Assembly (NCBI GenBank): GCA_041389045.1
Contig: JAWKSQ010000003.1
Location: 105,598 to 169,597, forward strand
Direction of reading: 5' to 3'
DNA length: 64,000 bases
From: Minisyncoccota bacterium
Lineage (GTDB): Bacteria; Patescibacteriota; Minisyncoccia; Phycocordibacterales; UBA918
Shown here piece after piece: positions 15,620 through 51,235 of this stretch. A model generated the notes under the pieces. The model was not told the origin of the DNA, ran no database searches, and was given only the letters and a program-made list of their open reading frames with translations. A program made the position numbers and the translations under genes. Each line of letters opens with the position of its first letter. Within the stretch, counting starts at the first letter, position 1.

Positions 15620-16582
15620 TTACTCAGGACTACTACTTGAGGCGGTACTGGTCGGAGTACTGGTAGATAACAGTGACTCGATATCAAAGACGGGCACATT
15701 ATCTAACTTAAAATAGTTACGGCTAACCTCCCTCACTTCATTATTTATTTCCTCCACGGTACGAGGCGCAATATCATCCAAAGCCACCGACACGTATAAA
15801 ATACCTTGCAAAGAAACCGGTGGTGTCACATAACCATACTGCACCGGCTGAGTTGGCGGATTTTCGACACTAATTATTTCACCGTAAACACCACTATCAA
15901 TACTAGGAAGCAAAACTAAGTTACCTTCTTTGAGCGGTATACCTTGTGGCACCCTGACTCTTGCCACACCACCACCCACTCCTTCCAAAGTAGCAAAAAC
16001 GTTAGGGCCAACGACATAAGAAGTTGATTCAAAACCGGGAGTAGTAATTAATTCCACAAAAGAATAATTTGCTGTCGCGTGCACTACCACCCCAATGACT
16101 GTATCAAAACCAATAAACACTGGTGAACCGACTGTAATACCATCCACCAACCCTTTATCGATTTGGAGTAAATCATAAGCCAGACGACTGGGCTGAGCCA
16201 TCACACGCGCTGTCAGACGATTGGTAGTCGTACCAAAATTAGTAGCCGCTCGTAGTTGCATATTCTCCTCTAGCAAACGCCTAATCGACAGCTGTGTACC
16301 GTTTTCGTTGGCGATTTGTTTCTTTAGAGACTCAATCTCCTTTACCAAATCTGACTTTACTCTCAAGTATTTAGGCACACTAGACTCTGAGGTTTGATAC
16401 CACACAGACACGGCATGCACTGGATAAAGCACAACAAAAGATATCCCAGAAATAATCTTCGGAAAAAAGAAACCCACTAATAAAACCACTACTGTAAAGA
16501 CAATACCGAAACGCAGACGTTTACGTGATGTATGGCGAGAGTTCCCCCTCATTATCGATGAGTACTTCTTCATATTGTTCAA
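15620..16582 (-). CDS. mreC: Rod shape-determining protein MreC
   Basis: N-terminal TM helix, a coiled coil, beta-rich domains and a Ser/Thr-rich tail. The true start may be an internal Met (16573 or 16552). Confidence 0.8.
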   Translation of the reverse strand: MNNMKKYSSIMRGNSRHTSRKRLRFGIVFTVVVLLVGFFFPKIISGISFVVLYPVHAVSVWYQTSESSVPKYLRVKSDLVKEIESLKKQIANENGTQLSIRRLLEENMQLRAATNFGTTTNRLTARVMAQPSRLAYDLLQIDKGLVDGITVGSPVFIGFDTVIGVVVHATANYSFVELITTPGFESTSYVVGPNVFATLEGVGGGVARVRVPQGIPLKEGNLVLLPSIDSGVYGEIISVENPPTQPVQYGYVTPPVSLQGILYVSVALDDIAPRTVEEINNEVREVSRNYFKLDNVPVFDIESLLSTSTPTSTASSSSPE

Positions 16583-17594
16583 GATTTTCTATGACAATGC
16601 CTGCTCCCCTCACCACCGCCCGAAGAGGATCCGGCACTACTACCACCGGAACCAGCAATGTCTCCTCCAAAAAAGCCGACAATCCTGGTATAAGCGCTCC
16701 ACCACCGCAAAGATTGATACCTCTCTGCATTATATCAGCCAACACTTCTGGTGGGGTTTTTTCCAGCACTGCCTTGGTAGCTTCAACTATTGTTTCGACC
16801 TGAGTAGAGACAGCGTCTCGTACATCACTAGCAGTAATGATTACTTCTCTTGGCAACCCCGTCATCACATCCCTACCTCTGATAACCATTTCGTTCCCGG
16901 CATTATCACTTTGCACTGAAGCTAACGCTATCTTGGCTTCTTCAGCCGTTTTTTCACCGACATAAACTTTAAATTGATCACGTACATAGGCAGCAATTGC
17001 TACATTGAGATGATCACCGGCTACGCGTAAATTCTTAGCCACCACAATGCCACTAAGTGAAATCACGGCAATATCGGTAGTGCCACCACCGATATCGATT
17101 ATCATACTACCAATAGCTTTGCCGACCGGCAGTTTTGAGCCAATGGCCGCAGCCATTGGCTCTTCAATCAAAAACACTTCACGAGCACCAGCGTTCTTAG
17201 CAGCGTCTCGCGCCGCTCGCATCTCAACGTTCGTAATACCTGACGGCACACCAATGAGTACCCTAGGCGCAACGAGTGAACGCATTTCGCCATGAACTTT
17301 GTTTATCAAATAGCCCAACATCTCTTCAGTTACTTCAAAGTCAGAAATTACTCCATCCACCAAAGGCCTGACCACTTCGATATGTTGTGGTGTCCGCCCC
17401 TGCATAGTCTTAGCTTCATTACCAACGGCCACCAACTGACCAGTTTTTTTATTAATGGCTACAATGGTCGGCTCATTGAGTACAATCCCCTTACCTTTTA
17501 CATACACCAAAGTATTGGCTGTACCCAGGTCAATAGCCATATCGGTCGATACGGTAGACAGGATTCTATTAATTTGTCGGGAGAAAAAACTCAT
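16521..17594 (-). CDS. mreB: Rod shape-determining actin homolog MreB
   Basis: Motifs DLGTANTLVY, DIGGGTTDIA and LCGGGALIPGL. Confidence 0.95.
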   Translation of the reverse strand: MSFFSRQINRILSTVSTDMAIDLGTANTLVYVKGKGIVLNEPTIVAINKKTGQLVAVGNEAKTMQGRTPQHIEVVRPLVDGVISDFEVTEEMLGYLINKVHGEMRSLVAPRVLIGVPSGITNVEMRAARDAAKNAGAREVFLIEEPMAAAIGSKLPVGKAIGSMIIDIGGGTTDIAVISLSGIVVAKNLRVAGDHLNVAIAAYVRDQFKVYVGEKTAEEAKIALASVQSDNAGNEMVIRGRDVMTGLPREVIITASDVRDAVSTQVETIVEATKAVLEKTPPEVLADIMQRGINLCGGGALIPGLSAFLEETLLVPVVVVPDPLRAVVRGAGIVIENLEQYEEVLIDNEGELSPYIT

Positions 17595-21746: not shown

Positions 21747-23321
21747 CTACTTTCTACTCTTTTGTAAATCTAAAATATGCTTGATCACTCGCCTGAGGTA
21801 CTTTTCAAAAGTTTCACCTGGTGAGTAAATGATTCCCTGTTCATAGCGCCAACCATTCATATAGTCCGTCACACTCTGTCTAATCTCTTGGGTGGAACCT
21901 TCAAAACGGCCAGCTAACAAAAGCGGTACTTGCAAATCAGCAATCTTCTTAAAGAGTGGATGTTCTCTACCTTTTGGTCCAGTACCAAAAAGACCGCTCT
22001 TTTTAAATAGTGACCAATCAGCCAAAAGCTGTTCCAGACCATCATCAACTTCCTTAGTAAACAATGGATCACCATCTTCACTAGTCGCAAGCGAGGCTGG
22101 GTCAGGTAAATCCTGTGGGGTTAAAACCTTTTGTCCGGTACTGGCCAAAGAAGAATCCTCGAAACCACTTTTTTCTTCTACAAAAGTTTCGCGCGTCGCT
22201 TCTGTTGCAGCTTGCAGAGTCTCAGCTGGGTCAGGTTCACTGACATCATTAATTGGAATCGGTTGAGCTGGGAAAGTATGTAGTCGACTGTGGCTCTCTG
22301 GAACCGGCTCAGGGCTGGAGCTGACGTAGGCTGCAACTGGTCTTGTTGGTAGTGGTTCGGGTGTCGTCGGCGTTACTGGGGTGACGGGCGCAGTAACATT
22401 ATAGTTGTTAGCTGGCACTACAGGGACAGGCTGTACTGGGACGGTGTAGGTGCTGGTGTAGTTACTGGCATTGATTGGAGCAATGGTGATCGGGGCTGGA
22501 TTAGTGACTAAGGAGCTGTAGTTACCAGAAGCTTGGTGTGCTTGTATAGCCACTTCAACTTGAGCAAAAGAATTTTCCAAACGGGCCATCGCTGGTTCCA
22601 TTTCACTGACTGCACCACTACTTAACTTCTTCATCGCTTCGAGTAGTGCGTTCATATACTCGCCCAACCTCATTATTAATATCAACTAAGTTAACCGGGT
22701 TACCAACCTTACTGTTAACGGCTGTTTTAATTTGTCGAATTCTGTCGAGATAAGCATCTTCAGGTCTTGAAGCTACCGGCGCTGCGCTACTACTGGTTCA
22801 GGTGACTGAATTGGTGCAGCAGGAGCAGGTGTAGGTGACACAGGAGCTGGTGCTGGCGGAGTAACTGATTGAGGAGCTGGAGTCGGCTGTGACTGAGGTT
22901 GTACTGGCGGTTGTGGCGGGACAACGGGTGTCGGGGTAACTGCTGGCGGTACAGCTTGCGGAACTGGGTTTGTAACTGGAGCAGGTGCTGGCTGGGGAGC
23001 TGGAGCTGTGACTACAGGTGCAGTGGTCGGAGTCGGAGTTTAAAAGTTGGAGTTGGCCTGATAACTACCAAAAGCCAAAGCTGGGCCAGACTGTGCAGTA
23101 GACTGTTTGACTGAGACCGGTATGATTTGGTGAGCAGACAACTTTTGTTCTAAATCAACTTGACGGAAGTGTCACCACCATTAGTGTAGAAATACCAAGT
23201 CGCGGAGTTCATTTTTGTCGGAGGCAGAAATATTGCTGGCTCTGATCGAAGCCAGAACAGACATCACTCCACTTTGAGAGTTTAAATCAAACGCACCAAC
23301 TAAAGAACTGGTTTGAGACAT
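21747..23321 (-). pseudogene. Proline/threonine-rich hypothetical protein, multiply frameshifted
   Basis: The ATG at 23321 opens MSQTSSLVGAFDLNSQSG. Reading continues through shifted frames (PTPTTAPVVTAPAPQPAPAP, DAYLDRIRQIKTAVNSKVGNPV) into the 312-aa ORF 22685-21747. At least four frame changes are needed. Confidence 0.55.
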
Positions 23322-29216: not shown

Positions 29217-31982
29217 TTACACTATACCACCTCCGACTGGGGCTGGGGCCGGTTTTTTCTCATAGCGAGCGGATATCTCCGCTTCGACTTCAGCCCGTGG
29301 GCGACCATAGGCGCGCGCGCTCATTTCTATCATTGCCTTAACCCTACTTGGATCAGACGTAATCGGTGGACGCATCGCCACACTAAAAGGCTTGGTCGGT
29401 ACACCGTTGGCCAAAATACGTACTAGCGCATTGTAGTTTGGGGTATTCATAATATCTTTAGCCGTAAAGACGGGGGCAAACTGCTGTTCCAAGAACTGAG
29501 CGTCTTCAGAACCCACTCGGAAAGCTACTAGTGAACCAACGTTACCAAAGACAGCATCTCTGATGTCTTGATCCAGTTGCGCAATAAACTGATGGACCAC
29601 AGTTAGACTAAGCTTGTACTTTCTCGCCTCAGAGAGAATAGAAGCGATAGCCGGAGTTGAAACGTTCTGGAACTCGTCTATGTGTAGGTAGAAAGGTGGG
29701 AAGCTACGAGTCGGATCGTCCACGCGAGACAAAGCGGCCATTAAGATCTTGCCGACAAAAATCATACCGATCAGATTGGCGTTGATTTCACCCAAGCGAC
29801 CTTTAGATAGATTGACCAAAAGAATTTTTTTCTCATCCATCACTTGGCGGAAGTTAAAGGCAGACTTTTGTTGACCGATAATTGGTCGCATGTAGTCGTT
29901 AGCGGTAAAGACATCGAACTTAGACACGATATACGGCACGATATTTTCAAGTGACGCTTCGCCGCCGGCTTTGGTCGCAATCTCCGTCCAGAACTGAACC
30001 ACTACCGGATTTTTGGCCTTGGACAGTTTGTAGCGACGATACTGTGCATCGACCATCACTCTCGAAATATCCATCAAAGTATTGCCACTTTCTGGATCTT
30101 CCATTACAAGCATGGTGGCATTACGGAAATACTGTTCAAACATTGGTCCCATACTTTCGGGATTTGCGCCGTACAGTTTTTGGAAAATAGAGAAGAGTTC
30201 ATTAACCACGAAGGTTTTTTGCTCAGGCTTGTTGATATCGTACTCCAGCATATTAAGTCCAACCACATTATCCATCCGTGACGGGTCAAAATAAATCACA
30301 TCTTTGGCTCGTTCCGGTGGCATAGCACCAAGCACCTCCTCAATGTCGGTACCATGAGGATCGATCATACAAACACCATTACCCATTTGGATATCCTGAA
30401 TAATAGTATTAGTCATAAACTTGGACTTTCCAGTTCCTGTTTGACCAATAATGTAGAGATGCCTCATGCGATCGAGCTCGGTCATGTAGATAGTCTTTTC
30501 TGAACCACGGTGACGATTTTCACCCAGAATAGTTCCTTCTGTCGGCATATCGGTTGGGGCGGCCGCGGTAGCCGACTGAGACTGCTTAAATTGTGGTGAA
30601 CTGAGGATGCCGTTAGCTGGAAAATGAATGACCGTCGACAGTTCTTTTAGTGACATTGGGATAGTGGCGTTACTCAAAAACTCGCGAAAGGCAAAAGCTT
30701 TCTGCAGACGCAGGAGTGAACCCTTAGCACGCTTAAAAGTAATCGCGTTTCCTTCCACCAAATCAAACTGATTGAAGGTCGACTCTATCTCAGTCATGAT
30801 TTGTTCAGCGCGATTGGGACTTGAGGCCGACACGGCTAGACGAATATTCGTCTCCACAATGTCAGTTTCAATCTTGCGATTAAAAACTTCTATTTTGTCA
30901 CTATCTGGTGAAGTCGTGTCTTTAACTTCGTCTTTTTTGTTCTTGCTAGCAAAAAACAAATCTGTCACCGCTCCCATCAACTCTCCCCCAACCGTACTGC
31001 GAGAAATAGCATCACTAGCACTTTTACCTTTTTGAATTTCCTTAATTATATCTTCGTAGGTTTTGCGGTACTTTTTCTGGGGATGTCTAATCACAAACTG
31101 CACCGCCGCGCCACCACCTTCACGTTCAATCTTAGAAAAAGCATTAAGAATAACCGCTAGTGGGTCGGAAGAAAAACCGTCGGCAGTGCGTAGTGGGTAG
31201 ATAGGGTGCTTTTTTAGTGACGCTTCAGCCACAATATTAGTGCCACCTTCTACGAAGATGTTGTAGTCATGGGCCTTGATAGTCAGTTCTGCATGAGGAA
31301 AGAGTGACAGTGTCTGCTTTTCAAACAGAGTCACAAAGGCATTTGGTACCGCTACATAAAAAACAATGTCGTCACTATTATCAGCCACCGCTATCTCAAT
31401 AACAAAATGATTTTCCGACTGCTTAGAACCGATTGTTCTCAGTCCGGCAAAAAGTTGTTCCATCATGCCAACCAATTCGGTTATTTGGTATTCCCTACCA
31501 TCCGCCTCTTTGATTTCTGGCAAAGTGACTTCAAACAAAGTCATACTAAGCATTTGCCACGGCGGAACGTCTTCCTTCAGATCCTGCACCTTGGCACCAG
31601 AGCGAATTCGCTCCACCATCTGCCGATGCACCTCGTCCACTAAGTAAGCATTATCCATTTTCTCAAGGACTGACAGAGCATTGCGAATCCCCTTCTCTTC
31701 AGCCATTGCCATAATCTCTGCTACCGGGTCATGAGCTTGCGTCGCCAACTCCACAGAAGCCGCTAACTCATGATCATTTAAACCATGTTCCTTATCTAAG
31801 ATGAGTTTCGGTGTAAACTGCGCATATTCTTTTATTTCTTGCTTACCAACAGTCTCGATGTCAGTACGGTCAATTTCTGGCGAACGTGAAAGTAACTCTC
31901 GTTCACGGAGAGCCACTTTTTCACGCAAGTACTTAAGCTCTTCCTCCGGTGAGGAAAATTGTTGTGGGACACCTTCTGGCAT
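29217..31982 (-). CDS. VirD4/TraG/TrwB-like (type IV coupling protein family) P-loop ATPase with a long unknown N-terminal domain
   Basis: Walker A GQTGTGKS (about 30423-30446), Walker B FYLHIDEFQNV (about 29661-29693) and ARKYKLSLTVVHQF. No TM helix was seen. Confidence 0.65.
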   Translation of the reverse strand: MPEGVPQQFSSPEEELKYLREKVALRERELLSRSPEIDRTDIETVGKQEIKEYAQFTPKLILDKEHGLNDHELAASVELATQAHDPVAEIMAMAEEKGIRNALSVLEKMDNAYLVDEVHRQMVERIRSGAKVQDLKEDVPPWQMLSMTLFEVTLPEIKEADGREYQITELVGMMEQLFAGLRTIGSKQSENHFVIEIAVADNSDDIVFYVAVPNAFVTLFEKQTLSLFPHAELTIKAHDYNIFVEGGTNIVAEASLKKHPIYPLRTADGFSSDPLAVILNAFSKIEREGGGAAVQFVIRHPQKKYRKTYEDIIKEIQKGKSASDAISRSTVGGELMGAVTDLFFASKNKKDEVKDTTSPDSDKIEVFNRKIETDIVETNIRLAVSASSPNRAEQIMTEIESTFNQFDLVEGNAITFKRAKGSLLRLQKAFAFREFLSNATIPMSLKELSTVIHFPANGILSSPQFKQSQSATAAAPTDMPTEGTILGENRHRGSEKTIYMTELDRMRHLYIIGQTGTGKSKFMTNTIIQDIQMGNGVCMIDPHGTDIEEVLGAMPPERAKDVIYFDPSRMDNVVGLNMLEYDINKPEQKTFVVNELFSIFQKLYGANPESMGPMFEQYFRNATMLVMEDPESGNTLMDISRVMVDAQYRRYKLSKAKNPVVVQFWTEIATKAGGEASLENIVPYIVSKFDVFTANDYMRPIIGQQKSAFNFRQVMDEKKILLVNLSKGRLGEINANLIGMIFVGKILMAALSRVDDPTRSFPPFYLHIDEFQNVSTPAIASILSEARKYKLSLTVVHQFIAQLDQDIRDAVFGNVGSLVAFRVGSEDAQFLEQQFAPVFTAKDIMNTPNYNALVRILANGVPTKPFSVAMRPPITSDPSRVKAMIEMSARAYGRPRAEVEAEISARYEKKPAPAPVGGGIV

Positions 31983-32065
31983 ACCAATATTGTACAGTAA
32001 CTGTTTACATTTTTACTCGACCATATCCCCTCCCGTCTGGAGCGATATTAGAACTTATTATTCAC

Positions 32066-32540
32066 AAAATCACTTAATTAAAACTTGAAGATACATGAAT
32101 TTCTCAATCTCCTTATATGAATCATCAGCAAGATTGTATGCATTGAATCGATTTCCTTTCCTACTGTATCCACCATGTAGTGAAGGACCACCACCTCCGA
32201 CTTGCGCATCTCTACTGACAAAATATGTTTCTGAATGAAGTCGCGACCTAGAATTTTCAAAATGTTTAAGGTTGGTGACAAAGTCTGAAACGATCTGTCT
32301 TTCTATCCTTTCTTTTTATCAAATAAATCTTCGATGGCTTGATCTTTATTGATATTTTTATCCAGTCTTTAAGATTATATAATTGAAAAGAAAACATAGA
32401 TATAATCTCTTGCTCTCTATAGAAATTCCGTTTCTCTGAAATACGTTATTCTCAACCTCTTTTACTTTTTTATACCATCGTTTTCCGCTCCCATTGCTCA
32501 AGATAATCATCCCCTCGATATTTTGGTGTAAAACTTTCAT
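32066..32540 (-). pseudogene. Decayed P-loop NTPase/kinase-like gene
   Basis: The N-terminus MKVLHQNIEGMIILSNGSGKRWYKK looks like a P-loop. Reading then needs frame changes (NLKDWIKISIK, DKNINKDQAIEDLFDKKK, ERIERQIVSDFVTNLKHF). Confidence 0.35.
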
Positions 32541-32574
32541 TTTATTACTTTAGCGAATAGTCGTCCGGGACAAG

Positions 32575-33066
32575 CTTAGAACTTTTTTAACAGAAATTCT
32601 GAAAATCTTTAGGGGACGAAACGATAGAGATTGCTCGGACTAACTTTTATAGCACCTTCTATTCGTGGTCTTTCGCCTCGAGTGGAAACAATCCATAGAA
32701 GCTGAAGCTAAATTTCTCAATGCTTCTGGCGCCAATTCAGGCCTACTTTCATTACGATGTGTACCACCTTTTTTAAAAGCTGGAACGCGCATCGCACACT
32801 GAGTAATCAAGATAAATTACCAAGTCTGCGCTCCGTAAACGTTCTGCCATTTTTTCATCTATGTATCCTTCAATTACCCATTTCTCTCCTCGATCAGTGC
32901 TTCATGTTTTTTAGATACTCCTCTTCAGGTACCTCTTCCCAATTTCCTTCCAGAATAATTGGTCCATATGAAAAAGGAAGTTGTGTTTTTGATGCAACAA
33001 CTCTTGAAGTAAAACTTTTTCAGATGCACTTATTCCGAGAAGTGCAATTCTTTGTATTCTTCTCAT
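32575..33066 (-). pseudogene. Decayed topology-modulation/adenylate-kinase-like AAA ATPase
   Basis: The ATG at 33066 opens MRRIQRIALLGISASEKVLLQEL, a substituted P-loop. FHMDQLFWKE, EVPEEEYLKNM and WVIEGYIDEKMAERLRSADLVIYLD follow in shifted frames. The 3' end coordinate is approximate. Confidence 0.5.
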
Positions 33067-33125
33067 AGAATACCATCTTGCTGGCCGTCTGGTACAAAGT
33101 TGGAACTTTCTACAAAACCAATCTC

Positions 33126-33188
33126 TATACCCAATTCATGTACAGAGCCAGCTCTAGAGCTAGTTCTGTACTACCAACATCTTCTTAA
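33126..33188. repeat. Left copy of a roughly 60-bp direct repeat with a palindromic core
   Basis: tataccc..gtacag..agctctagagct..tgtactac..catcttc.ttaa recurs at 33750-33807. Confidence 0.7.
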
Positions 33189-33220
33189 GAACATGCAAAG
33201 AGGTACATAATTAACCACAT

Positions 33221-33640
33221 TTATTTAAGCCACCCTGGCAAAACTTCCTTAATCTTAATAGCTTCGTCAAATTCATGATAGTTATTTGTCAGTTCTTTGC
33301 CCACACCTATATCTCTATTGGCAACAAAAAATGGTTCCGGTGAGATATCTAAATCAACCCCTACTGACAGATTATAAGTTTCTCTGCATCATGATTTGTA
33401 TATAGGGCAGGATCGTTTTCCGGTGGAAGACATATTGATTAGTAGTAGACGATAAGTAGGCCACTTATCCAAATAGAGTCTTTTTCTTCCTGGCTTAAGT
33501 CTTGATAATCTGTGACTGATAGAGTTTTATCGTGACCTTCTATAAACTTCCAAACAATTTCCCCTTTAGTATTACTTGATCGGCAAAGACTCCTTTACCT
33601 TGGATATTTGACTCAGCGACCTTATTTTAACTAAATACAT
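33221..33640 (-). pseudogene. SET-domain (protein-lysine methyltransferase-like) gene, frameshifted
   Basis: Segments in different frames read NIQGKGVFADQVILKG, IVWKFIEGHDKTLSVTDYQDL, PALYTNHDAE and ANRDIGVGKELTNNYHEFDE. These match the SET N-terminal GxGVFA, NHS-like and GEELT.Y blocks. Confidence 0.5.
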
Positions 33641-33677
33641 AATGAGACTTTAGTATACCAAGATATTGACCTTTTAG

Positions 33678-33719
33678 ACCCTAAACACCCCAAATGTACT
33701 GGTTTGGGGTGTTTAGGGT
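33678..33719 (+). terminator. 17-bp hairpin followed by a T-rich tract
   Basis: accctaaacaccccaaa / tttggggtgtttagggt with an 8-nt loop, then tgttattatt. Confidence 0.4.
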
Positions 33720-33749
33720 TGTTATTATTAGAGTTTTAAACTGGCCGAT

Positions 33750-33807
33750 TATACCCGTACAGAACTAGCTCTAGAGCTGGCTTGTACTACATCACATCTT
33801 CCTTAAT
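33750..33807. repeat. Right copy of the roughly 60-bp direct repeat
   Basis: See 33126-33188. The central palindrome arms are swapped relative to the left copy. Confidence 0.7.
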
Positions 33808-33847
33808 TTGATAGTGTTCGGTTAGCAAGATGCATCCGCCCGATAAA

Positions 33848-33876
33848 TTGACAAAAGATATATCTGTGATAAAATA
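33848..33876 (+). promoter_or_regulatory. Sigma70-like promoter TTGACA-16-TAAAAT
   Basis: TTGACA at 33848-33853 and taaaat at 33870-33875, preceded by tgtga. Confidence 0.5.
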
Positions 33877-33954
33877 CTAATATTATTAACCTAGGCCACT
33901 AGATTAGGCCAATGTGGCTAATGATAGTGCTCTTTGAATAAAAGGAGAAAGAAC

Positions 33955-34452
33955 ATGACACAGTTGTCACAAAAGGTCATACTCAATTACAGCATGTCGC
34001 TTGCTGACATGCTCACTGCATGTAACATGTCGGCGGTCGACCCTATCGCCTCTGAAGTGGTGACAGATGAATACTTCCCATCAAAGGCACGGGAGTGGTT
34101 GCAATGCCGTTCCTGGAAAGACTTGGGTGAAAAATGGCTCTATCGGGCAGATCGCGCTCGAAGTATTCTCATGGAAAAGGGTTTGCGTCCGGCAACTTTG
34201 CCGGAAATGCTCATGTTCATGGTGAACAACCCGGAAGAAGCCACTAACCATGCCATTGTCGCATTGAGTCCCGCGACCATCAGTCCCGTTGGGAGATTCA
34301 AGAACTGGTACATGGAATACCGACGTTCATTCGTCCCAACAATCATCAACCATACACGCTTCCACAACGGAGCACGGTTGGAGCGTGTTGGCAAACCGGA
34401 AATCTGGCTTGCACCCGAAATGATAGCTGGTTTCGCGGTAATACCAGTATGA
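33955..34452 (+). CDS. Hypothetical protein (165 aa) of cassette D
   Basis: AAGGAG lies 8 nt upstream of the ATG at 33955. The ORF is intact and a hairpin follows downstream. No family recognised. Confidence 0.55.
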   Translation: MTQLSQKVILNYSMSLADMLTACNMSAVDPIASEVVTDEYFPSKAREWLQCRSWKDLGEKWLYRADRARSILMEKGLRPATLPEMLMFMVNNPEEATNHAIVALSPATISPVGRFKNWYMEYRRSFVPTIINHTRFHNGARLERVGKPEIWLAPEMIAGFAVIPV

Positions 34453-34490
34453 ACTGGTGCTTTGCAGTGCTTCCGGAATGAAGTATTACA

Positions 34491-34536
34491 GCCAGATAGT
34501 AATATCTGGCTCACAAAAACACCTCGGGTGGCTTTT
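34491..34536 (+). terminator. Hairpins plus T-run ending cassette D
   Basis: gccagata-gtaa-tatctggc at 34491-34510, then cacc-tcg-ggtg followed by gctttt. Confidence 0.45.
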
Positions 34537-35223
34537 ATATAATTAAATAGTAAACTAATTAAACAAAGGATTAACCGTACTTTTTCTATATTCTTTTACT
34601 CTAGAAACAAATTCTAATTCTTCTCCATGGATTCATAAATTGTGGTAATCCATAACTATCACCTTCAAATCTTAACCCTTCTCCTAAATTAGGATAACCT
34701 TCATTTTTCCATCAATATAGCGACTTGCGTACTGGGATTGCTGATTCATTAAAACTCCTGGCTACATCAGAAAATGACACAACCCTTTCTCATCTACTTC
34801 GAATTTTTACCAGGTCTCTACTTTCAAAATTAATCATTCCAGAAATTATATCAATAATTTGTTATACATTTAAACAGTAACCAAAAGTTGCCTCTATCCG
34901 TTATACAAGTATATGAAATGGCATCCTTTTTAAATGCAACTTTGGCAGTCACATACATCAGCGCCCTTGTGCTGTTTATGCATTGTTAATCAATCCGTCA
35001 CGATACAAGACACCCTACTCGATGGTATCGGGGTCATATCTTTTGTCTTTTCAGCAGCGGTGATGGCTTTTCTATTTTCTACCAACCAGTACTCAAGCTT
35101 ATCGAAAACAAAAAGCCGAAGCTTTAGCGTATTTTTAAAAACCTTAGGTATATTCGGAGCCATCACGATAACCGTATTAACACTAGTCAGTCTGCGTAAG
35201 AAGCTAATGAAACTAGATAGGTA

Positions 35224-35367
35224 CCTACCGCTTCGCGAGTACAGCTTGTTTGTAGGCGTCGAGGTGTTCGAGGGCGATACCAGTTCCGGTCGCAACACAG
35301 AAGAGGGCTTCGGCTAATTGTGCCTTGACGCCGGTGTGACGCTTAACCAATTCCTGGAAATTACGGA
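35224..35367 (-). repeat. Diverged second copy of the last ~48 codons of mreB2
   Basis: It translates to LLRNFQELVKRHTGVKAQLAEALFCVATGTGIALEHLDAYKQAVLAKR* against QLRNFPELVKRRTGVKAQLANEALFCVATGTGIALEHLDAYKQAVLAKR* at 35908-36054. Confidence 0.85.
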
Positions 35368-35907
35368 GTAAAGAAAACTGCTCAATTTGATCGATTGATC
35401 TCTATGAATTAAGCAGCTGTCATCAAGACGACATCTAAACCAGTAAAGAACATCTACCCCATGTATCCTCGACGAACTCTTATACGCCCTGATACTGAAC
35501 CAAGCTCAGTTACAAGGTAACGGTCTGCGACTATAGGGAACCGGAAGTGACTCAATCGCTTAAGCTTGCGTCGAGCCAGTCTAAACGACGGTTAGCATCA
35601 TCTAATTCACCTCCAGTGCTCGAAATCGTGCCTCTCTACGGCTGTCAGCAGTCGCAAACCGTTCATCAAGCATCCGCACTACCTCCTCATTGTTAATTCA
35701 ACATAATTCACCTCTCATTTGAGTAGAGCGCCGTGGCACTATTTTACGTGTGCTGTCAACTCGCGACAGCACGCGACCCCTATGGAAGATGATAACTTCC
35801 ACTCCTCATGCTGACCAATCGCTTTGCAATACAGCAAAAAAACTAGTAAACACTAGTAACAATAATGCCTCACACTATCTAAACGTCAAACTTTTTTATT
35901 AAAATTA
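35368..35907 (-). mobile_element. Cassette G: 0.54-kb promoter-to-terminator module between the two mreB2 3'-end copies
   Basis: TTGACG at 35889-35884, then a 23-codon ORF MLDERFATADSRREARFRALEVN behind GAGGAGG, a repeated gaggtgaatta motif, and a terminator at 35371-35416. Confidence 0.35.
35371..35416 (-). terminator. Terminator of cassette G
   Basis: ctgctcaatt (35378-35387) pairs with aattaagcag (35407-35416). On the minus strand ttttctt follows. Confidence 0.45.
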
Positions 35908-35908
35908 C

Positions 35909-36914
35909 CTACCGTTTTGCCAATACAGCTTGTTTGTAGGCGTCGAGGTGTTCGAGGGCGATACCAGTTCCGGTCGCAACACAGAAGAGGGCTTCGTTGG
36001 CTAATTGTGCCTTGACGCCGGTGCGACGCTTCACCAGCTCGGGAAAATTACGCAGTTGTGAAGTTCCACCAGTCATAATCACACCACCATCAATAATGTC
36101 AGCCAACTCCGGTGGTGTATTTTGAAAAACGTCTTTAATAGCTTTAACCATCTCTCTAAGCTCCTTACTAATTGCTCGCACCACTTCATTGGTGCGAATC
36201 TCCGTCGTCCGTGGCAAACCAGACAGTACATCGCGTCCCTTGATGTCCATAGTCAACTCTTCTTCAGTGGTAAGGCTGAACCAACCGTAATTTTGATTTC
36301 CTCAGCGGTCTTATCGCCAATTGAAAGATTCCTGGTCTTTTTGACATAATCCACAATCGCGGTCAATTCTATTGCCGGCACACTTTACGGAGTTGGCCGC
36401 TACAATGCCACCGAGAGAAATGACTGCGACGTCTATAGTACCTCCACCCACATCGACAATCATGTCCTTGTGGTTCATAGATTGGTATACCAGCGCCGAT
36501 CGCTGCCAAAATCGGCTCCTTAACTACGTAAGCATTACGAGCACCGGCTTTAATCGTCGCCTCTACCACCGCCCGTCTTTCGGTCGAAGTTACTCCCGCT
36601 GGCACTGACACCATCACGTCTGGCTTAAAAATATTGAAACGTGGCAAGGCCTTACGTAAGAAATAGCGAAGCATCGTCTCAGTGACACGATAGTCAGCAA
36701 TGACTCCATCTTTCATCGGCCGGTAGGCTCTAATACTGTCTGGTGTTCGTCCAATCATCCGCTTTGCTTCGGCGCCGACTGCCAACACCTGATTATCTTC
36801 AGATATGGCCACCACTGAGGGTTCATTCAGCACTATCCCTTGTCCAGGTACAAATACAAGAATACTAGTGGTACCAAGATCGATACCAATCTTCGGAGTA
36901 AATTTATTAAACAT
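35909..36914 (-). pseudogene. Second MreB paralog, frameshifted
   Basis: The N-terminal ORF 36914-36369 (IGIDLGTTSILVF) loses frame after IYEPQG. The C-terminal ORF 36256-35909 carries VIMTGGTSQLRNF. Confidence 0.75.
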
Positions 36915-44127: not shown

Positions 44128-44199
44128 TCCGCGGTAGCTCAGTGGTAGAGCAGGTCGCTGTTAACGACTTGGTCGTAGGTTCGAATCCTACCCGCGGAG
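44128..44199 (+). tRNA. tRNA-Asn (anticodon GTT)
   Basis: Manual cloverleaf: acceptor tccgcgg/ccgcgga, D arm gctc-agtggta-gagc, anticodon arm ggtcg-ctGTTaa-cgact, T arm gtagg-ttcgaat-cctac. CCA is not encoded. Confidence 0.9.
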
Positions 44200-44243
44200 C
44201 AATATAAAAGTCCCCTTTTGGGGATTTTTATATTGCTCCGCGG
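44192..44243. terminator. 24-bp inverted repeat that includes the tRNA 3' acceptor strand (bidirectional-terminator-like)
   Basis: ccgcggagcaatataaaagtcccc-tttt-ggggatttttatattgctccgcgg. Confidence 0.6.
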
Positions 44244-44368
44244 AACAAGCAAACAATTTTGCTTGTGTGTAGGATTCGAAAAGATGGAGTATATCGCACG
44301 AGCGAAGCGAAGTACGATACGACATCTGTACAGCCCATGTAATGGGAGAAACTCCTACCCGCGGAGCC
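44197..44368 (+). repeat. Repeat E1: ~170-nt element ending in a split copy of the tRNA-Asn T arm and acceptor
   Basis: It is about 93% identical by eye to 45546-45712. It contains gtagg-attcgaa, then an insert of ~73 nt, then cctac-ccgcgga-gcc. Confidence 0.8.
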
Positions 44369-44372
44369 AACA

Positions 44373-44401
44373 TTGACATAGCACACTTTGTGTGCTATTG
44401 T
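44373..44401 (+). promoter_or_regulatory. Promoter TTGACA-17-TATTGT with an embedded palindrome ATAGCACAC-TTT-GTGTGCTAT
   Basis: The -35 is at 44373-44378, the -10 at 44396-44401 and the palindrome at 44378-44398. Confidence 0.6.
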
Positions 44402-44448: not shown

Positions 44449-44919
44449 ATGACCAAAATCATTTGTGCCTTCGCAGGCACAGGTAAGACAACAGCTTCCC
44501 AGAGCACTCTGTGGCACGTACGAGATAGCGACAGTGATGAATTTCGGTTCATTAACGCACGTCTCAATCGAAAACCAGAAGGTCAAAACCCGCTCTGGCC
44601 ACAAAACTACATCGACCACGCCGTCACGGAATATGCCAAGGGTGACTTTGATGCAATCCTGATGTCCGCGTACGTCGAACTTCTGCCCAGGATTGCAGAG
44701 CGTATTCCACTCACCTACGTCTATCCATCACTGGATATGAAAGATGAGTTCGAGATGCTTTATCGCAATCGTGGCAATCCCAACTGGCTGGTAAGTCTGC
44801 TCATTAACCACTACGATGAATGGATCACGGCACTGATGGCAATGGATGGGCATCACGTCGTTTTGAAACCTGACCAGTACCTGACTGATGTTCTGCCTGA
44901 AATATTGGCAGGAACCTAG
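44449..44919 (+). CDS. Small P-loop NTPase (156 aa) of cassette A
   Basis: Walker A FAGTGKTT at residues 8-15. GAGG lies 8 nt upstream of the ATG. The ORF is intact and has its own terminator. Confidence 0.6.
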   Translation: MTKIICAFAGTGKTTASQSTLWHVRDSDSDEFRFINARLNRKPEGQNPLWPQNYIDHAVTEYAKGDFDAILMSAYVELLPRIAERIPLTYVYPSLDMKDEFEMLYRNRGNPNWLVSLLINHYDEWITALMAMDGHHVVLKPDQYLTDVLPEILAGT

Positions 44920-44990: not shown

Positions 44991-45019
44991 TTGATTCTTT
45001 ATTACTTGTACCATATAGT
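44991..45019 (+). promoter_or_regulatory. Promoter TTGATT-17-TATAGT
   Basis: The -35 is at 44991-44996 and the -10 at 45014-45019. GGAGA and the ATG at 45072 lie downstream. Confidence 0.5.
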
Positions 45020-45071
45020 TACAAATGCCAAGTAACGTGCTTGGTTGTACCCTTAACTTTTGGAGATATCC

Positions 45072-45443
45072 ATGAAAACTGCCTTGTCTTTGCCGATGGG
45101 TACCACCAAGGTCGCGCACCTCCCACTTTCGACATGCACCGTGTGGAAGCGTCACTGTTGACCAACCACAAGTTGTTCGACGGCATTGCTCTCTCCGAGC
45201 AAGCGGTTAAGGAAGCGTCACTCAGATCGCGCCTTTCTCCAGCGACACAAAGAAGCTGGTATGCCGACTGATTTCGGAACTTCTCAAGATCGTCGATCGT
45301 GTGTGGCACACGCACATGTGCGAAACTCGCCAATGCCGCAGACTGGAGGTTCGTACTTCGGCCAGATGTTCCATCACTCGAACGACACCTGTGACATGAA
45401 GCTGCTCCGCAGGAGTAAGGTAGGGCAGAACCTTCGCCCCTGA
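45072..45443 (+). other. Second transcription unit of cassette A; coding frame unresolved
   Basis: The frame from the ATG at 45072 runs 124 codons to the TGA at 45441, but with an in-frame TGA at 45159-45161. Other frames and the opposite strand are also open. Confidence 0.3.
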
Positions 45444-45448
45444 ACTAG

Positions 45449-45500
45449 CCCGCACGAAACACCCGCCAACCTTTGGCAAGTTTCGTCCGGGTTTTTCTTT
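45449..45500 (+). terminator. Rho-independent terminator
   Basis: cccgcacgaaac (45449-45460) pairs with gtttcgtccggg (45480-45491) at 11 of 12 positions, then tttttctttt. Confidence 0.65.
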
Positions 45501-45545
45501 TACCTCAATCCCAAACCGTAGCGTTCGAACATCATTCACCCAGCG

Positions 45546-45712
45546 GAGCAATATAAAAGTCCCTTTGGGATTTTTTTATATTGCTCCTGGAACAAGCAAA
45601 CAATTTTGCTTGTGTGTAGGGTCAAAAGATGGAGTATATCGCACGAGCGAAGCGAAGTACGATACGACATCTGTAAGCCCATGTAATGGGAGAAATTCCT
45701 ACCCACGAAGAA
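45546..45712 (+). repeat. Repeat E2 (second copy of E1, tRNA-like parts more decayed)
   Basis: It aligns with 44197-44368. The differences concentrate in gtagggtcaaaag and cctacccacgaag. Confidence 0.8.
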
Positions 45713-45715
45713 ATA

Positions 45716-45752
45716 TTGACAAGGCCATTATACATTGTATAATGGCCTTGTC
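45716..45752 (+). promoter_or_regulatory. Consensus promoter TTGACA-16-TATAAT inside a perfect 15-bp-arm palindrome
   Basis: gacaaggccattata-cattg-tataatggccttgtc at 45718-45752. Confidence 0.65.
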
Positions 45753-46476
45753 TGTTCAAGATTAACGTTCTTTGGAGGAAGAGAATGATTGATACACCGG
45801 AAAAGATCAGGAATACCTCTTTGTTACCGAACCGGCCAAACCCGAAGAACCGAAAGAGGTTCGCATCCACCCTCTGTCTGTAGTTGCTACAAGCACGAGA
45901 AGTTGATTTTGGTCTTTGAGAGGGCTAGAAAGGAGCTTCCCTGCTTGGAAGCACAGTGGAGCAACTCGAATGCTGTGCTGTTACTGCAATGCTCACTCAT
46001 CGTCCTGAAGTTGTAGCTTGCTACAAACAGCAGGACATGGCCGAGCAGAAGCTGGCCCAGATCAAGGCTCATACCCCGTTCATTGCAAAGGCTTGCCACT
46101 ACATTCGCGCTTTCGAGTGATGAATGACCTATCTACAACTGAAAGAGTAACCTATGGACAAAACACCTGGGTCGTACCTGGACAGTATCCGACCAAACCT
46201 TCTTGGAGGCCATAAAGCTGGAAAGGAGGGACCGAGGAAGCCCATGCTTCACTCTAAAGAAAGGTTACTTTACTCCACCCCGCTCGACCATGGAACCTAG
46301 GTTTTCAAAGACAGAGGTATGGGAAGGGTGATTTACGCCATTCTCGATAAGTTCGGTGATTTGATCGTAGAGGCACGTCGAGAAGTTGCCGCATATCGTT
46401 TGCGGTAAACGACTATAAGGGGCTTTAGCTTCAAGAGCAAGCTAACACAGACCGTCACACCAAGTGGAAGAAAGGA

Positions 46477-46520
46477 CCGTCGTCCCCACTTCCCCCACTT
46501 CGGTGCGGCGGTTTTCTTTT
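46477..46520 (+). terminator. Terminator of cassette B
   Basis: ccgtcg pairs with cggcgg (one G-U pair), then ttttcttttt. Confidence 0.45.
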
Positions 46521-46561
46521 TATATACTCACACAAGTTCGAACATCCTTAACCTATCGGAG

Positions 46562-46929
46562 TAAATATTGACAAAGCCAGTATGTATGACAAACTGTCTT
46601 TGTTCTGTTCACACCTAAAGGGAGATTATCTTGAGTACCTTAGAAAAAACTTTGAAGTGCACTTCATATGCGGATGGGAGGGTCGACGAGTCATCGAGAC
46701 CCTGAAGCCAAAATCCGATAAAAAGCATTCTTACACTTGGTAGGAACCCGGCCTGCAGGGATCAAAATGCCCCAATGCCAATCTGATACGACACCCAGCA
46801 CCAAGCAATTGGTGTCGTGACAACCACCGCCACACTACTAGTGAGACGAGAAAGCTAACGCTTCGTCTCACGGGGTGGCGGCTTTTTCATTTACATAAAA
46901 AGTTCGAACATCATCAAAAGTCCAGAGCA
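46562..46929 (+). mobile_element. Cassette C (shortest unit) ending at junction R3
   Basis: aaatattgacaaagcc at 46563-46578, GGGAG plus the TTG at 46631, a terminator at 46827-46890 and R3 gttcgaacatcatcaaaagtccagagca at 46902-46929. Confidence 0.35.
46827..46890 (+). terminator. Nested-hairpin terminator
   Basis: gtgagacga (46841-46849) pairs with tcgtctcac (46863-46871). This is enclosed by ccgcc/ggcgg, then ctttttcattt. Confidence 0.6.
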
Positions 46930-50289: not shown

Positions 50290-51235
50290 TGGTTGAAAAT
50301 AATCTTTTCTCCATAAGAATTAATCACTATTGAGAAATCTTTATAGTATGATTTGATTCTCTGGCCTCAAAGACGCAGGTTTGTTCCCCACAACTACCCA
50401 GGAAAATCATGTCCCAACAGAAAAAGGCCCGCGGGGCCGACTGACTTTCAGCTTCGTAACCAGATCCGTATATGACGCCCTTTTGGTCATGCAGACTCAC
50501 GGCCACCACCGCACTGGCTTTGGCGGTCGACAGCGACGTTACATTCACTTTTCCAAGACTGGCGATGGCGAGATCAGTATTTGCCGTTCCGACGGACCAC
50601 ACATTTGGAACTACGATCGGAACGCCTTTATCAACAAGGCCGTCAGGTGCTACCTGGAATTGATCGCACGGTCACGGTGGAACCTGGCGCCGGACTCGAC
50701 TACATCCCTGCTTACGAGCAGATGATGACGAAACTGAACAATCCCAGATTTGCCCTCAAGACGTTGGAAAACCTGGGTCATTTCCTGCGCCGACAAAGGT
50801 TTATCAGTTGAACGCGCTGGCCGAAATGGCCAAGGACGATCGACCGGAAACGCCGGCGACAATCATCGAGCTGTGCGCTCCTGAGCAGAATCTGCTATTG
50901 GGCAAAACGGATGAGTCTCCTGGTGAACTTCATTCAGAAGATGTCTCAAAGCGACCGCTACTCCAAACCATCGACACTGTCAGGTCTTCTGGAGGCGCTG
51001 TTCATGAGCGGCTAGCGATTCCGATGAAGACGGCTTCGACGCATTCGGAAGCTTTGCAGACATGCTTCGTCAACAGACTAAGCGATCGGATCGGCCCTGG
51101 CCACATGACCAACGGCGTCGTGAAGGCGCACGTCTTCTGATAAACCCTTTGACGGCGTTAGATAACGCCGCAAACCCACCGCAAATGTGTGTGAGAATTA
51201 CTCGACTAGCATAGTGGTAGGTTTTTCTTTATATA
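50290..51235 (+). mobile_element. Cassette F: GC-rich insert between msrA and pspC
   Basis: Hand counts give 63% GC for 50641-50700 and 47% for 50881-50940. The plus-strand reading from the ATG at 50409 to the TGA at 51140 needs frame changes. The tail gtggtaggtttttctttatatat overlaps the pspC stop codon. Confidence 0.35.
51175..51230 (+). terminator. Candidate terminator of cassette F
   Basis: cccaccgc (51175-51182) pairs imperfectly with gtggtagg (51214-51221), then tttttcttt. Confidence 0.3.

Follow-up and report, generated by a model that had tools for sequence, protein, structure and literature searches.

Cassette D, a GC-rich single-gene expression module of probable horizontal origin in a decaying insertion block of a Paceibacteria genome

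Gene organization and expression signals of cassette D

The window analyzed here, a 64,000-nucleotide stretch of contig JAWKSQ010000003.1 from a Minisyncoccota bacterium (assembly GCA_041389045.1), contains a small unit, cassette D, with a single intact ORF (33955..34452, plus strand, ATG at 33955) for a protein of 165 amino acid residues (protein D), a member of an unannotated domain family. The cassette lies in an island between a second mreB gene (mreB2) and a gene resembling that of the coupling protein of type IV secretion systems (T4CP-like gene). We regard it as rather probable that D is a self-contained expression module, acquired horizontally from a pool of single-gene cassettes in Paceibacteria and now located in an ectopic, decaying block. 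An earlier interpretation made from the letters alone (the sequence-only reading) had described an intact 165-residue ORF of approximately 50% GC, and this description was accurate: of the 51 window ORFs scored, none exceeded it in GC content (0.502) or in GC3 (0.560; z = 3.5), and the local GC content stepped to 0.50-0.54 at D vs. 0.28-0.38 in the flanks.

The promoter named in that reading was present at 33848..33875 (plus strand) as a sigma-70-type promoter (TTGACA, 16 nt, TAAAAT), with a TG one base 5' of the -10 element; it scored 11/12, the extended -10 TG being present. A match of this quality alone is not rare, four matches of at least 11/12 having been found window-wide vs. 1.2 +/- 1.2 in shuffles, and the promoter is credible because it is conserved across homologous cassettes, not because of its match score: in the alignment of D-family cassettes, the -35 and -10 elements were kept in all six (6/6). 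In BLASTN, the DNA homology between cassette D and a metagenomic locus carrying a D homolog (L010) started at 33851, i.e., at the promoter, and the 40 nt at 33808-33847 therefore lie outside the module.

Between the promoter and the ORF, a conserved 5' leader (33876..33954, plus strand) carried GGCCAatGTGGCTAATGATAGTGCTCTTTGAAT and the ribosome-binding site AAAGGAG (33941-33947), seen as AAGGAG in the sequence-only reading. This leader (~80 nt) was near-identical in the alignment with L010 and two further loci with D homologs (L001 and L013), and its fold was weakly better than those of shuffles (z = -1.9). The part of the D-family leader reading GGCCAnnTGGCTAATGATAGTGCTCTTTRAAT (33895-33935; L001 7470-7510; also in L010 and L013) was near-identical in spite of ~45% protein divergence, and may function as an RNA regulator or as a site of protein binding. 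As the sequence-only reading had proposed, the unit ended in hairpins and a T-rich tail (34490..34544, plus strand): a 9-bp stem (34490-34511), a 4-bp stem (34520-34530), and the tail GGTGGCTTTTATATAATT (34527-34544), which together probably form an intrinsic terminator, a rather weak one. The promoter, leader, and terminator accompanied the gene across the D homologs, and cassette D is presumably transcribed from its own promoter.

Protein D

The dN/dS of D against its homologs was 0.17-0.24, values that are approximate because dS was saturated, and D is therefore taken as a real coding gene. Protein D was identical in sequence to an NCBI hypothetical protein. No family had been recognized for it in the sequence-only reading, and the searches agreed with this: Pfam, NCBIfam, PHROGs, and PADLOC gave zero matches, and the PDB sequence/profile search was likewise empty. 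An exhaustive HMMER search with protein D returned 266 distant representatives (clusters at 50% identity), which had a domain of ~105 residues in common (..GLRPATLxELLAFGAxxPExQR..PIVALGS..RFLAVRK), in some cases in two or three copies; one multi-copy relative had a hydrophobic, signal-peptide-like N-terminus, as judged by eye. Pfam searches with ten of these distant relatives and with all 121 members of the alignment gave nothing consistent, no PDB sequence match was obtained either, and cluster look-ups for the distant relatives returned no names.

The AlphaFold model of protein D built from 121 sequences reached a pLDDT of 78 and a pTM of 0.75, while that from seven sequences (pLDDT 37) was unusable. 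The best Foldseek matches of the model in PDB and BFVD all belonged to the C-type-lectin/Link-module class, but were non-significant (E of at least 0.3, TM 0.3-0.49) and came without sequence-profile support. The predicted fold weakly resembles C-type-lectin-like binding domains; a binding role is a weak lead.

Insertion between the mreB2 and T4CP-like genes

Eighty syntenic loci of related Paceibacteria were fetched via MurA, 66 of which held both the T4CP-like gene and mreB2. The conserved order in these relatives is the T4CP-like gene (921 aa), mreB2, and murA. The gap between the first two genes had a median of ~96 nt over the 66 relatives and was <300 nt in 41/66, and the 3929 nt found in the window (31983..35911, the whole island from the T4CP-like gene start to the mreB2 stop, to which no strand is assigned) was the second largest. 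Since the larger gaps were filled by unrelated genes, this gap is an insertion hotspot; 25/66 relatives carried unrelated inserts in it, none with J, the junction repeat described below. A D homolog was encoded in 0/80 of the related loci; the insertion of D and its foreign composition are established. Native sequence of the kind found 5' of the T4CP-like gene in relatives (GGGGAT..TACAAT..ATG) resumed at ~32035.

The mreB2 gene itself (35909-36914, minus strand) was split into three ORF pieces by frameshifts, while it is intact in relatives such as L085; the frameshifts may reflect true decay next to the hotspot or errors of sequencing. Another mreB, intact and paired with mreC, was located at 15620-17594. 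The largest insert at the hotspot among the relatives was that of L073 (mreB-orientation positions 1355-1891 and 2864-3841), which carried ORFs for putative SMI1/KNR4 (SUKH) immunity-type proteins.

D homologs and the J repeat

Only six close homologs of D (53-64% identity) were found among 5.8 billion clusters, and loci were fetched for four of these six. The D homolog was a GC outlier (0.51-0.56) within a low-GC contig at all four loci checked (4/4), and the contexts differed. These loci bear on the possibility that the higher-GC segment of the window is an assembly or binning chimera, for which it may be said that the source is a metagenome-assembled genome and that the frameshifts in mreB2 and several cassettes could be sequencing errors. 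On the other hand, the GC-rich ORF lay between a low-GC promoter and a low-GC terminator, the sequences of which were homologous to those of the D cassettes in at least five independent low-GC assemblies, and the long genes on both sides were intact; a chimera is scarcely credible at all.

Three homologs (P0004, P0005, and P0006; 53-57% identity to D) sat between copies of a conserved repeat of ~32 nt, J (AAAAGTTCYAACATCGTCCCAGACNGCCAGC), which delimits the units of arrays, and two of them (P0004 and P0006) were downstream of tRNA-Gln. J was found on both sides of the D homolog in L001, L010, and L013; in L001 and L010, the D-bearing array followed tRNA-Gln, and D was oriented antiparallel to the tRNA. 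An exact-pattern scan detected J in at least 120 metagenome stretches, with flanks that were unrelated between loci, and an exact-pattern scan of viral contigs gave no J. The J-array system is widespread in environmental Paceibacteria-like DNA. Among the tRNAs in J loci, 27/28 were tRNA-Gln, always located 5' of J and sharing its strand. When the 3' part of J was aligned by eye with the T-stem and acceptor 3' strand of tRNA-Gln, 13/16 positions agreed; J carried a 5-nt insert relative to the tRNA-Gln 3' end, and was more conserved than the tRNAs themselves. The membership of D in this cassette family and the association of J with tRNA-Gln in other genomes are established by these data.

The sequence-only reading had relied on likenesses between the ends of cassette D and those of other cassettes in the window, and had suggested one family of inserted modules at unlinked sites. 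The resemblance of the D tail to those of cassettes B and F was real: the pattern GGYRG.TTT..TATATA, which was fitted post hoc, occurred exactly three times in the window (34527, 46507, and 51216, all on the plus strand) vs. 0.02 expected. However, a terminator plus TATA/A-run tail (GC stem, T run, TATA, A run) was located directly 5' of J in other arrays, and the likeness therefore reflects the terminator-plus-junction context, not a boundary element of its own. At the left edge, a parallel with R2, a tRNA-Asn-type junction of the window, had been proposed; this parallel was weak, with 22/42 ungapped identities, nearly all of them in GTTCG and ATTGACAAA. The 27 nt between these two motifs had ~8/27 identities with R2 (counted by hand), which is the chance level, and GTTCG at -32 was found at 2/20 TTGACA sites in the window (p ~0.06). 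The stretch beginning gttcgg, taken in that reading for a junction, contained no recognizable junction repeat, and an HMM of 123 independent J junctions was silent at the D edges. The D relatives belong to tRNA-Gln-type arrays, not to the tRNA-Asn-type junctions (R2) of the window. The proposed module family is itself supported, by the hotspot, the absence of D from the 80 relatives, the homologs in J arrays behind tRNA-Gln, and the three J copies next to D (see below), whereas the boundaries assigned to it are not a family signature.

The marginal GTTCG match, the post hoc tail pattern, and the occurrence of such promoters about once per window by chance would be expected if D were an ordinary lineage-specific orphan and the shared "grammar" were generic bacterial punctuation, with no cassette family behind it. 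This explanation is largely refuted by the synteny gap, the 0/80 relatives, the GC3 of D (z = 3.5), the homologs in J arrays behind tRNA-Gln, and the J copies adjacent to D in the island, and we give it very little credence.

Large serine recombinases in J loci

When the ORFs of J loci were clustered, a single recombinase proved to be recurrent; it was of the large serine type, with Resolvase, Recombinase, and Zn_ribbon_recom domains, and was found in eight loci. In L146 and L096, its gene was adjacent to the 3' end of tRNA-Gln or overlapped it, in convergent orientation. All of the informative loci (5/5) had this gene between the tRNA and J, convergent to both. Related serine recombinases were likewise positioned at tRNA-Asn in L026, L067, and L016, and the recombinase-bearing tRNA-Asn of relatives was syntenic with the tRNA-Asn of the window (fmt, HPF, then tRNA). 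The Gln- and Asn-type junctions are related: both had AAAGTTCNAACATC followed by a mimic of the 3' strand of the local tRNA, and both were linked to large serine recombinases; the Asn-type junction GTTCGAACATCCTCTACCCAGCGGAGC was present in the relatives L045, L055, and L058. The association of the recombinase with J loci in other genomes is established, and we infer from its position that it acts on J.

Direct repeats resembling tRNA 3' ends and tandem accretion are classic for tyrosine-integrase islands (Islander, PMC4383910; tycheposons, bioRxiv 10.1101/2020.12.28.424599), and the arrays may be imagined as the work of a tyrosine recombinase, either integron-like with a folded attC or of the tycheposon/Islander type, with the serine recombinases being coincidental. 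Against this, the only recurrent recombinase in the J loci was the large serine type (8 loci; ORF clustering, no tyrosine-recombinase profile scan having been made), and in 5/5 informative cases it had the tRNA on one side and J on the other, in convergent orientation. Moreover, J was conserved in sequence and was not a variable imperfect palindrome, and the cassettes had their own promoters, unlike integron cassettes. We consider a tyrosine recombinase to be quite improbable as the builder of these arrays.

Structure of the island around D

Read on the minus strand from mreB2, the island consisted of the mreB2 3' end, a 530-nt insert, a second copy of the mreB2 3' end, a membrane-gene remnant, D (antiparallel, like its homologs), a SET-domain cassette, J (33112), a P-loop-kinase-like cassette, J (32588), a further frameshifted cassette, and J (32060). 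A position weight matrix (PWM) of J, built from other genomes only and with a shuffle maximum of 10.3 bits, had three hits in the window, all of them in the island and on the minus strand, with a spacing of 524 and 528 nt. The first, TAGAAAGTTCCAACTTTGTACCAGACGGCCAGCA (33079..33112, minus strand), ends the SET-domain cassette and scored 33.5 bits; nhmmer with an HMM from 123 metagenomic J copies placed it at 33110-33078 (E = 3e-5). The second (32555..32588, minus strand) was degenerate, with 20.8 bits and only a partial match in nhmmer. The last (32027..32060, minus strand) scored 18.2 bits and was matched by nhmmer at 32058-32033 (E = 0.007), over model positions 3-28 only; it kept the consensus to ...CCAGACGG and was then fused to the native sequence 5' of the T4CP-like gene (GAGGGGAT...), a junction with the appearance of a site-specific half-site that was joined to a secondary target.

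The SET-domain cassette (33140..33787, minus strand), located between the D promoter and J (33112), was frameshifted, and its region contained no minus-strand ORF of at least 50 aa. Its DNA was 71% identical to a J-bounded cassette in L149, and the Pfam SET domain was found on the intact L149 homolog. The cassette was flanked by palindrome-containing repeats of 32 nt at 33140-33171 and 33757-33787. Within the surrounding direct repeat (33133-33190 and 33750-33808), the imperfect interior of the 32-nt palindrome was exactly reverse-complemented between the copies, with the outer flanks in direct orientation, and the palindrome core was found in 0/215 of the fetched loci. The broken ORF at 32911-33066 (minus strand), between J (33112) and J (32588), starts with MRRIQRIALLGISASEKV and is presumably P-loop-kinase-like, as judged by reading its translation. 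The cassette between J (32588) and J (32060) was also frameshifted; an intact homolog without J was found in the same gap of L085. D was the sole intact gene of the block, the three neighboring cassettes being frameshifted.

On the other side of D, tblastx revealed the remnant of a small membrane-protein gene (34900..35221, plus strand), which in L001, L191, and L215 occupies the distal end of the tRNA-Gln array, past the last J. This was followed by the displaced second copy of the mreB2 3' end (35222..35374, minus strand), the proximal edge of the ~3.2-kb block containing D, and by a separate GC-rich insert of ~530 nt (35375..35905, minus strand), which had its own promoter-like site and lay between the two mreB2 3'-end copies. 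The duplicated segments (~150 nt; ~36055-35906 and 35374-35222) differed from each other by an in-frame 3-nt indel, and all differences in their last six codons were synonymous. An analogous duplicate of the mreB2 3' end (80 nt, 98.8% identity) was found in the relative L073. These duplications suggest that the 3' end of mreB2 is the target of a second insertion system.

Two candidates for an element of D's own were rejected. A degenerate inverted J at the left edge of D was considered because AGCAAGATG also occurs after J (33112), but this was a 9-nt match with chance-level flanks. A miniature inverted-repeat or insertion-sequence type of element would have had as its ends an inverted match of 11 nt (33816-26 and 34576-87); this match contained two mismatches and was estimated to be at the chance level, and the flanking bases were not duplicated.

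Origin of the block and weighing of the evidence

The duplication of the mreB2 3' end allows for an arrival without any action on J: once DNA had been taken up, homologous or illegitimate recombination may have brought the block to the locus, or a separate element specific for the mreB2 3' end may have carried it as cargo, with the J copies being inert passengers from a former tRNA-Gln array. Consistent with this, the mreB2 duplications here and in L073 point to a distinct insertion process at the hotspot, 25/66 relatives hold unrelated J-less inserts in the same gap, the parts are arranged differently from those in L001 (here, the remnant of the membrane gene is proximal), and D's own J copies are missing. 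However, the J copy that closes the block at its far end agrees with the consensus as far as ...GACGG, where native sequence abruptly takes over, as in a site-specific junction, and we judge a J-independent arrival to be unlikely.

Several further observations weigh against the acquisition of D from a J array. Neither edge of D had a J, by the PWM or by nhmmer with the 123-copy HMM, and the individual mobility of D at this locus is therefore not established. Because a neighboring cassette has a J-less homolog in L085, some of the island may have been present earlier or have come by a different route. No recombinase was detected in the 64-kb window by tblastx/tblastn or by Pfam scans of 40 window ORFs, and no tRNA-Gln was present in it, the sole tRNA being the tRNA-Asn at 44128. 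Two D homologs (the L005 group and L009) were located in arrays or contexts without J. The terminator of cassette D is weak, with a 4-bp stem before the T run, while the homologs carry a stronger GC stem and T run at the same place. In addition, the link between the serine recombinase and J is a positional association in 5 to 8 loci, and the saturation of dS mentioned above makes the evidence for selection on D approximate. A tRNA remnant was absent from 31900-36100 at Rfam E <= 1, and no match to a leader RNA or other relevant match was obtained across the island.

Even so, we hold the acquisition of D as a self-contained module from the single-gene cassette pool, within an ectopic and decaying block, to be the rather probable history. 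Its proposed course is as follows. In Paceibacteria, single-gene cargo cassettes would accumulate head-to-tail downstream of tRNA genes, with every array unit ending in a ~32-nt J that mimics the tRNA 3' end. The large serine recombinase, the first gene after the tRNA in some arrays, would integrate site-specifically and repeatedly at the same site, so that older units would be pushed outward and lose the recombinase. Four cassettes (D, SET-domain, P-loop-kinase-like, and one other) would make up the ~3.2-kb block, with D in the tRNA-proximal position. This block would have inserted at an ectopic site lacking a tRNA, the mreB2/T4CP-like gap; at its far end, a putative J half-site is joined directly to native DNA. 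The block is decaying: the neighbors became frameshifted and the J copies flanking D were lost, with D itself still intact.

The tRNA-Asn region and other features of the window

Junctions of the Asn type (GTTCGAACATC), which are also found in relatives, were located in the window at 45523, 46536, and 46902. Additional high-GC cassettes lay behind the tRNA-Asn (44449-44919, 45000-46900, and 50380-51140), and most of the other high-GC stretches were broken into short ORFs, i.e., pseudogenized. The cassettes behind tRNA-Asn included a P-loop protein of 156 aa that matched PHROG 4182 (E = 3e-30), a PHROG of unknown function. A long hairpin after the tRNA-Asn pairs with the 3' end of the tRNA itself and is followed by a unit of ~170 nt in two copies (44195-44375 and 45535-45715), which resembles a tRNA acceptor/T-arm minihelix with an insert of ~80 nt in the T-loop. 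Rfam at E <= 1 over the tRNA-Asn region gave nothing relevant, and the ~170-nt unit was unmatched. CCCATGTAATGGGAGAAA and the T-stem 3' strand of this unit were also found in the tRNA-Gln array of L010 (L010 2340-2215), and a second type of T-loop insert was common to L001 (9440-9290) and L010. Elsewhere, 22001-23000 was the sole 1-kb bin of the first 48 kb with a positive GC skew (+0.17); its GC content was 0.50, and it overlapped an ORF of 312 aa without a Pfam match.

Comparison with known systems

The nearest known analogs of the J arrays are SCC-type composite islands and tandem tRNA islands, and in function the arrays resemble integrons. In the SCC islands of staphylococci, the large serine recombinases CcrAB/CcrC act at the 3' end of rlmH/orfX, and composite units are arranged in tandem. 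The J arrays resemble these islands in the presence of a large serine recombinase, in the insertion site, which is the 3' terminus of a conserved gene (tRNA-Gln or tRNA-Asn, and mreB2 in the present case), in tandem units closed by a short direct repeat like the target 3' end, and in the many units without a recombinase. They differ in that they target tRNA genes and that most of their units (0.2-3 kb) contain only one gene, which has a promoter and a terminator of its own; furthermore, J is conserved across many genomes, and the J arrays are known here from sequence alone.

The tRNA islands (Islander/TIGER-type and the tycheposons of Prochlorococcus) share with J arrays an intact tRNA at one end, tRNA-3'-like repeats at unit ends (in the J arrays, putatively displaced tRNA fragments), cargo-only remnants, and a content that is hypervariable between relatives. 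Those islands are typically driven by tyrosine integrases and have units of kilobases to tens of kilobases, whereas the J arrays are associated with a serine recombinase, J carries a non-tRNA insert (ACATC) common to the Gln and Asn types, and the D locus has no tRNA.

Integron cassettes and clusters lacking the integrase (CALIN) are similar as arrays of mostly single-gene cassettes of unknown function that are split by a repeat resembling a recombination site, may occur without a recombinase, and vary in cassette content between relatives. However, J lacks the folded imperfect palindrome of the attC type (RYYYAAC...GTTRRRY pairing), and no upstream partner of GTTAGAAC was found in L001. D has its own conserved promoter and no common Pc, and no intI was found among the window ORFs scanned. 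The cassettes of J arrays carry their own promoter and terminator, and either orientation is possible.

Implications for gene exchange in Patescibacteria

A search of the literature on integrons, serine recombinases, or tRNA islands in Patescibacteria/Parcubacteria found only a general survey of genomic islands (PMC12455944), the text of which contains none of the words tRNA, integrase, recombinase, and cassette. The gene-capture arrangement of the J arrays was not found described for Paceibacteria in the searchable literature. A broader proposal may be put forward tentatively, and we hold it to be doubtful: that Paceibacteria, and perhaps other Patescibacteria, possess an integron-like capture platform run by a large serine recombinase in place of a tyrosine integrase, in which single-gene cassettes, every one equipped with a promoter, a terminator, and a conserved pseudo-tRNA attachment repeat of ~32 nt, are inserted successively behind tRNA-Gln and tRNA-Asn and blocks may jump to secondary sites such as the mreB2/T4CP-like gap, with D as live cargo that encodes a member of a large, undescribed family of binding domains.

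With the present analysis, a pattern noticed by eye has become a testable model, in which the boundary sequences have been corrected to the real ones. J would provide a simple sequence handle for cataloguing the accessory gene pool, to which the unannotated protein D domain family belongs. The genomes of Patescibacteria are tiny, and few routes of gene exchange are recognized in these organisms; if the proposed roles of J and the serine recombinases are true, these would give them a dedicated and widespread means to sample accessory genes.

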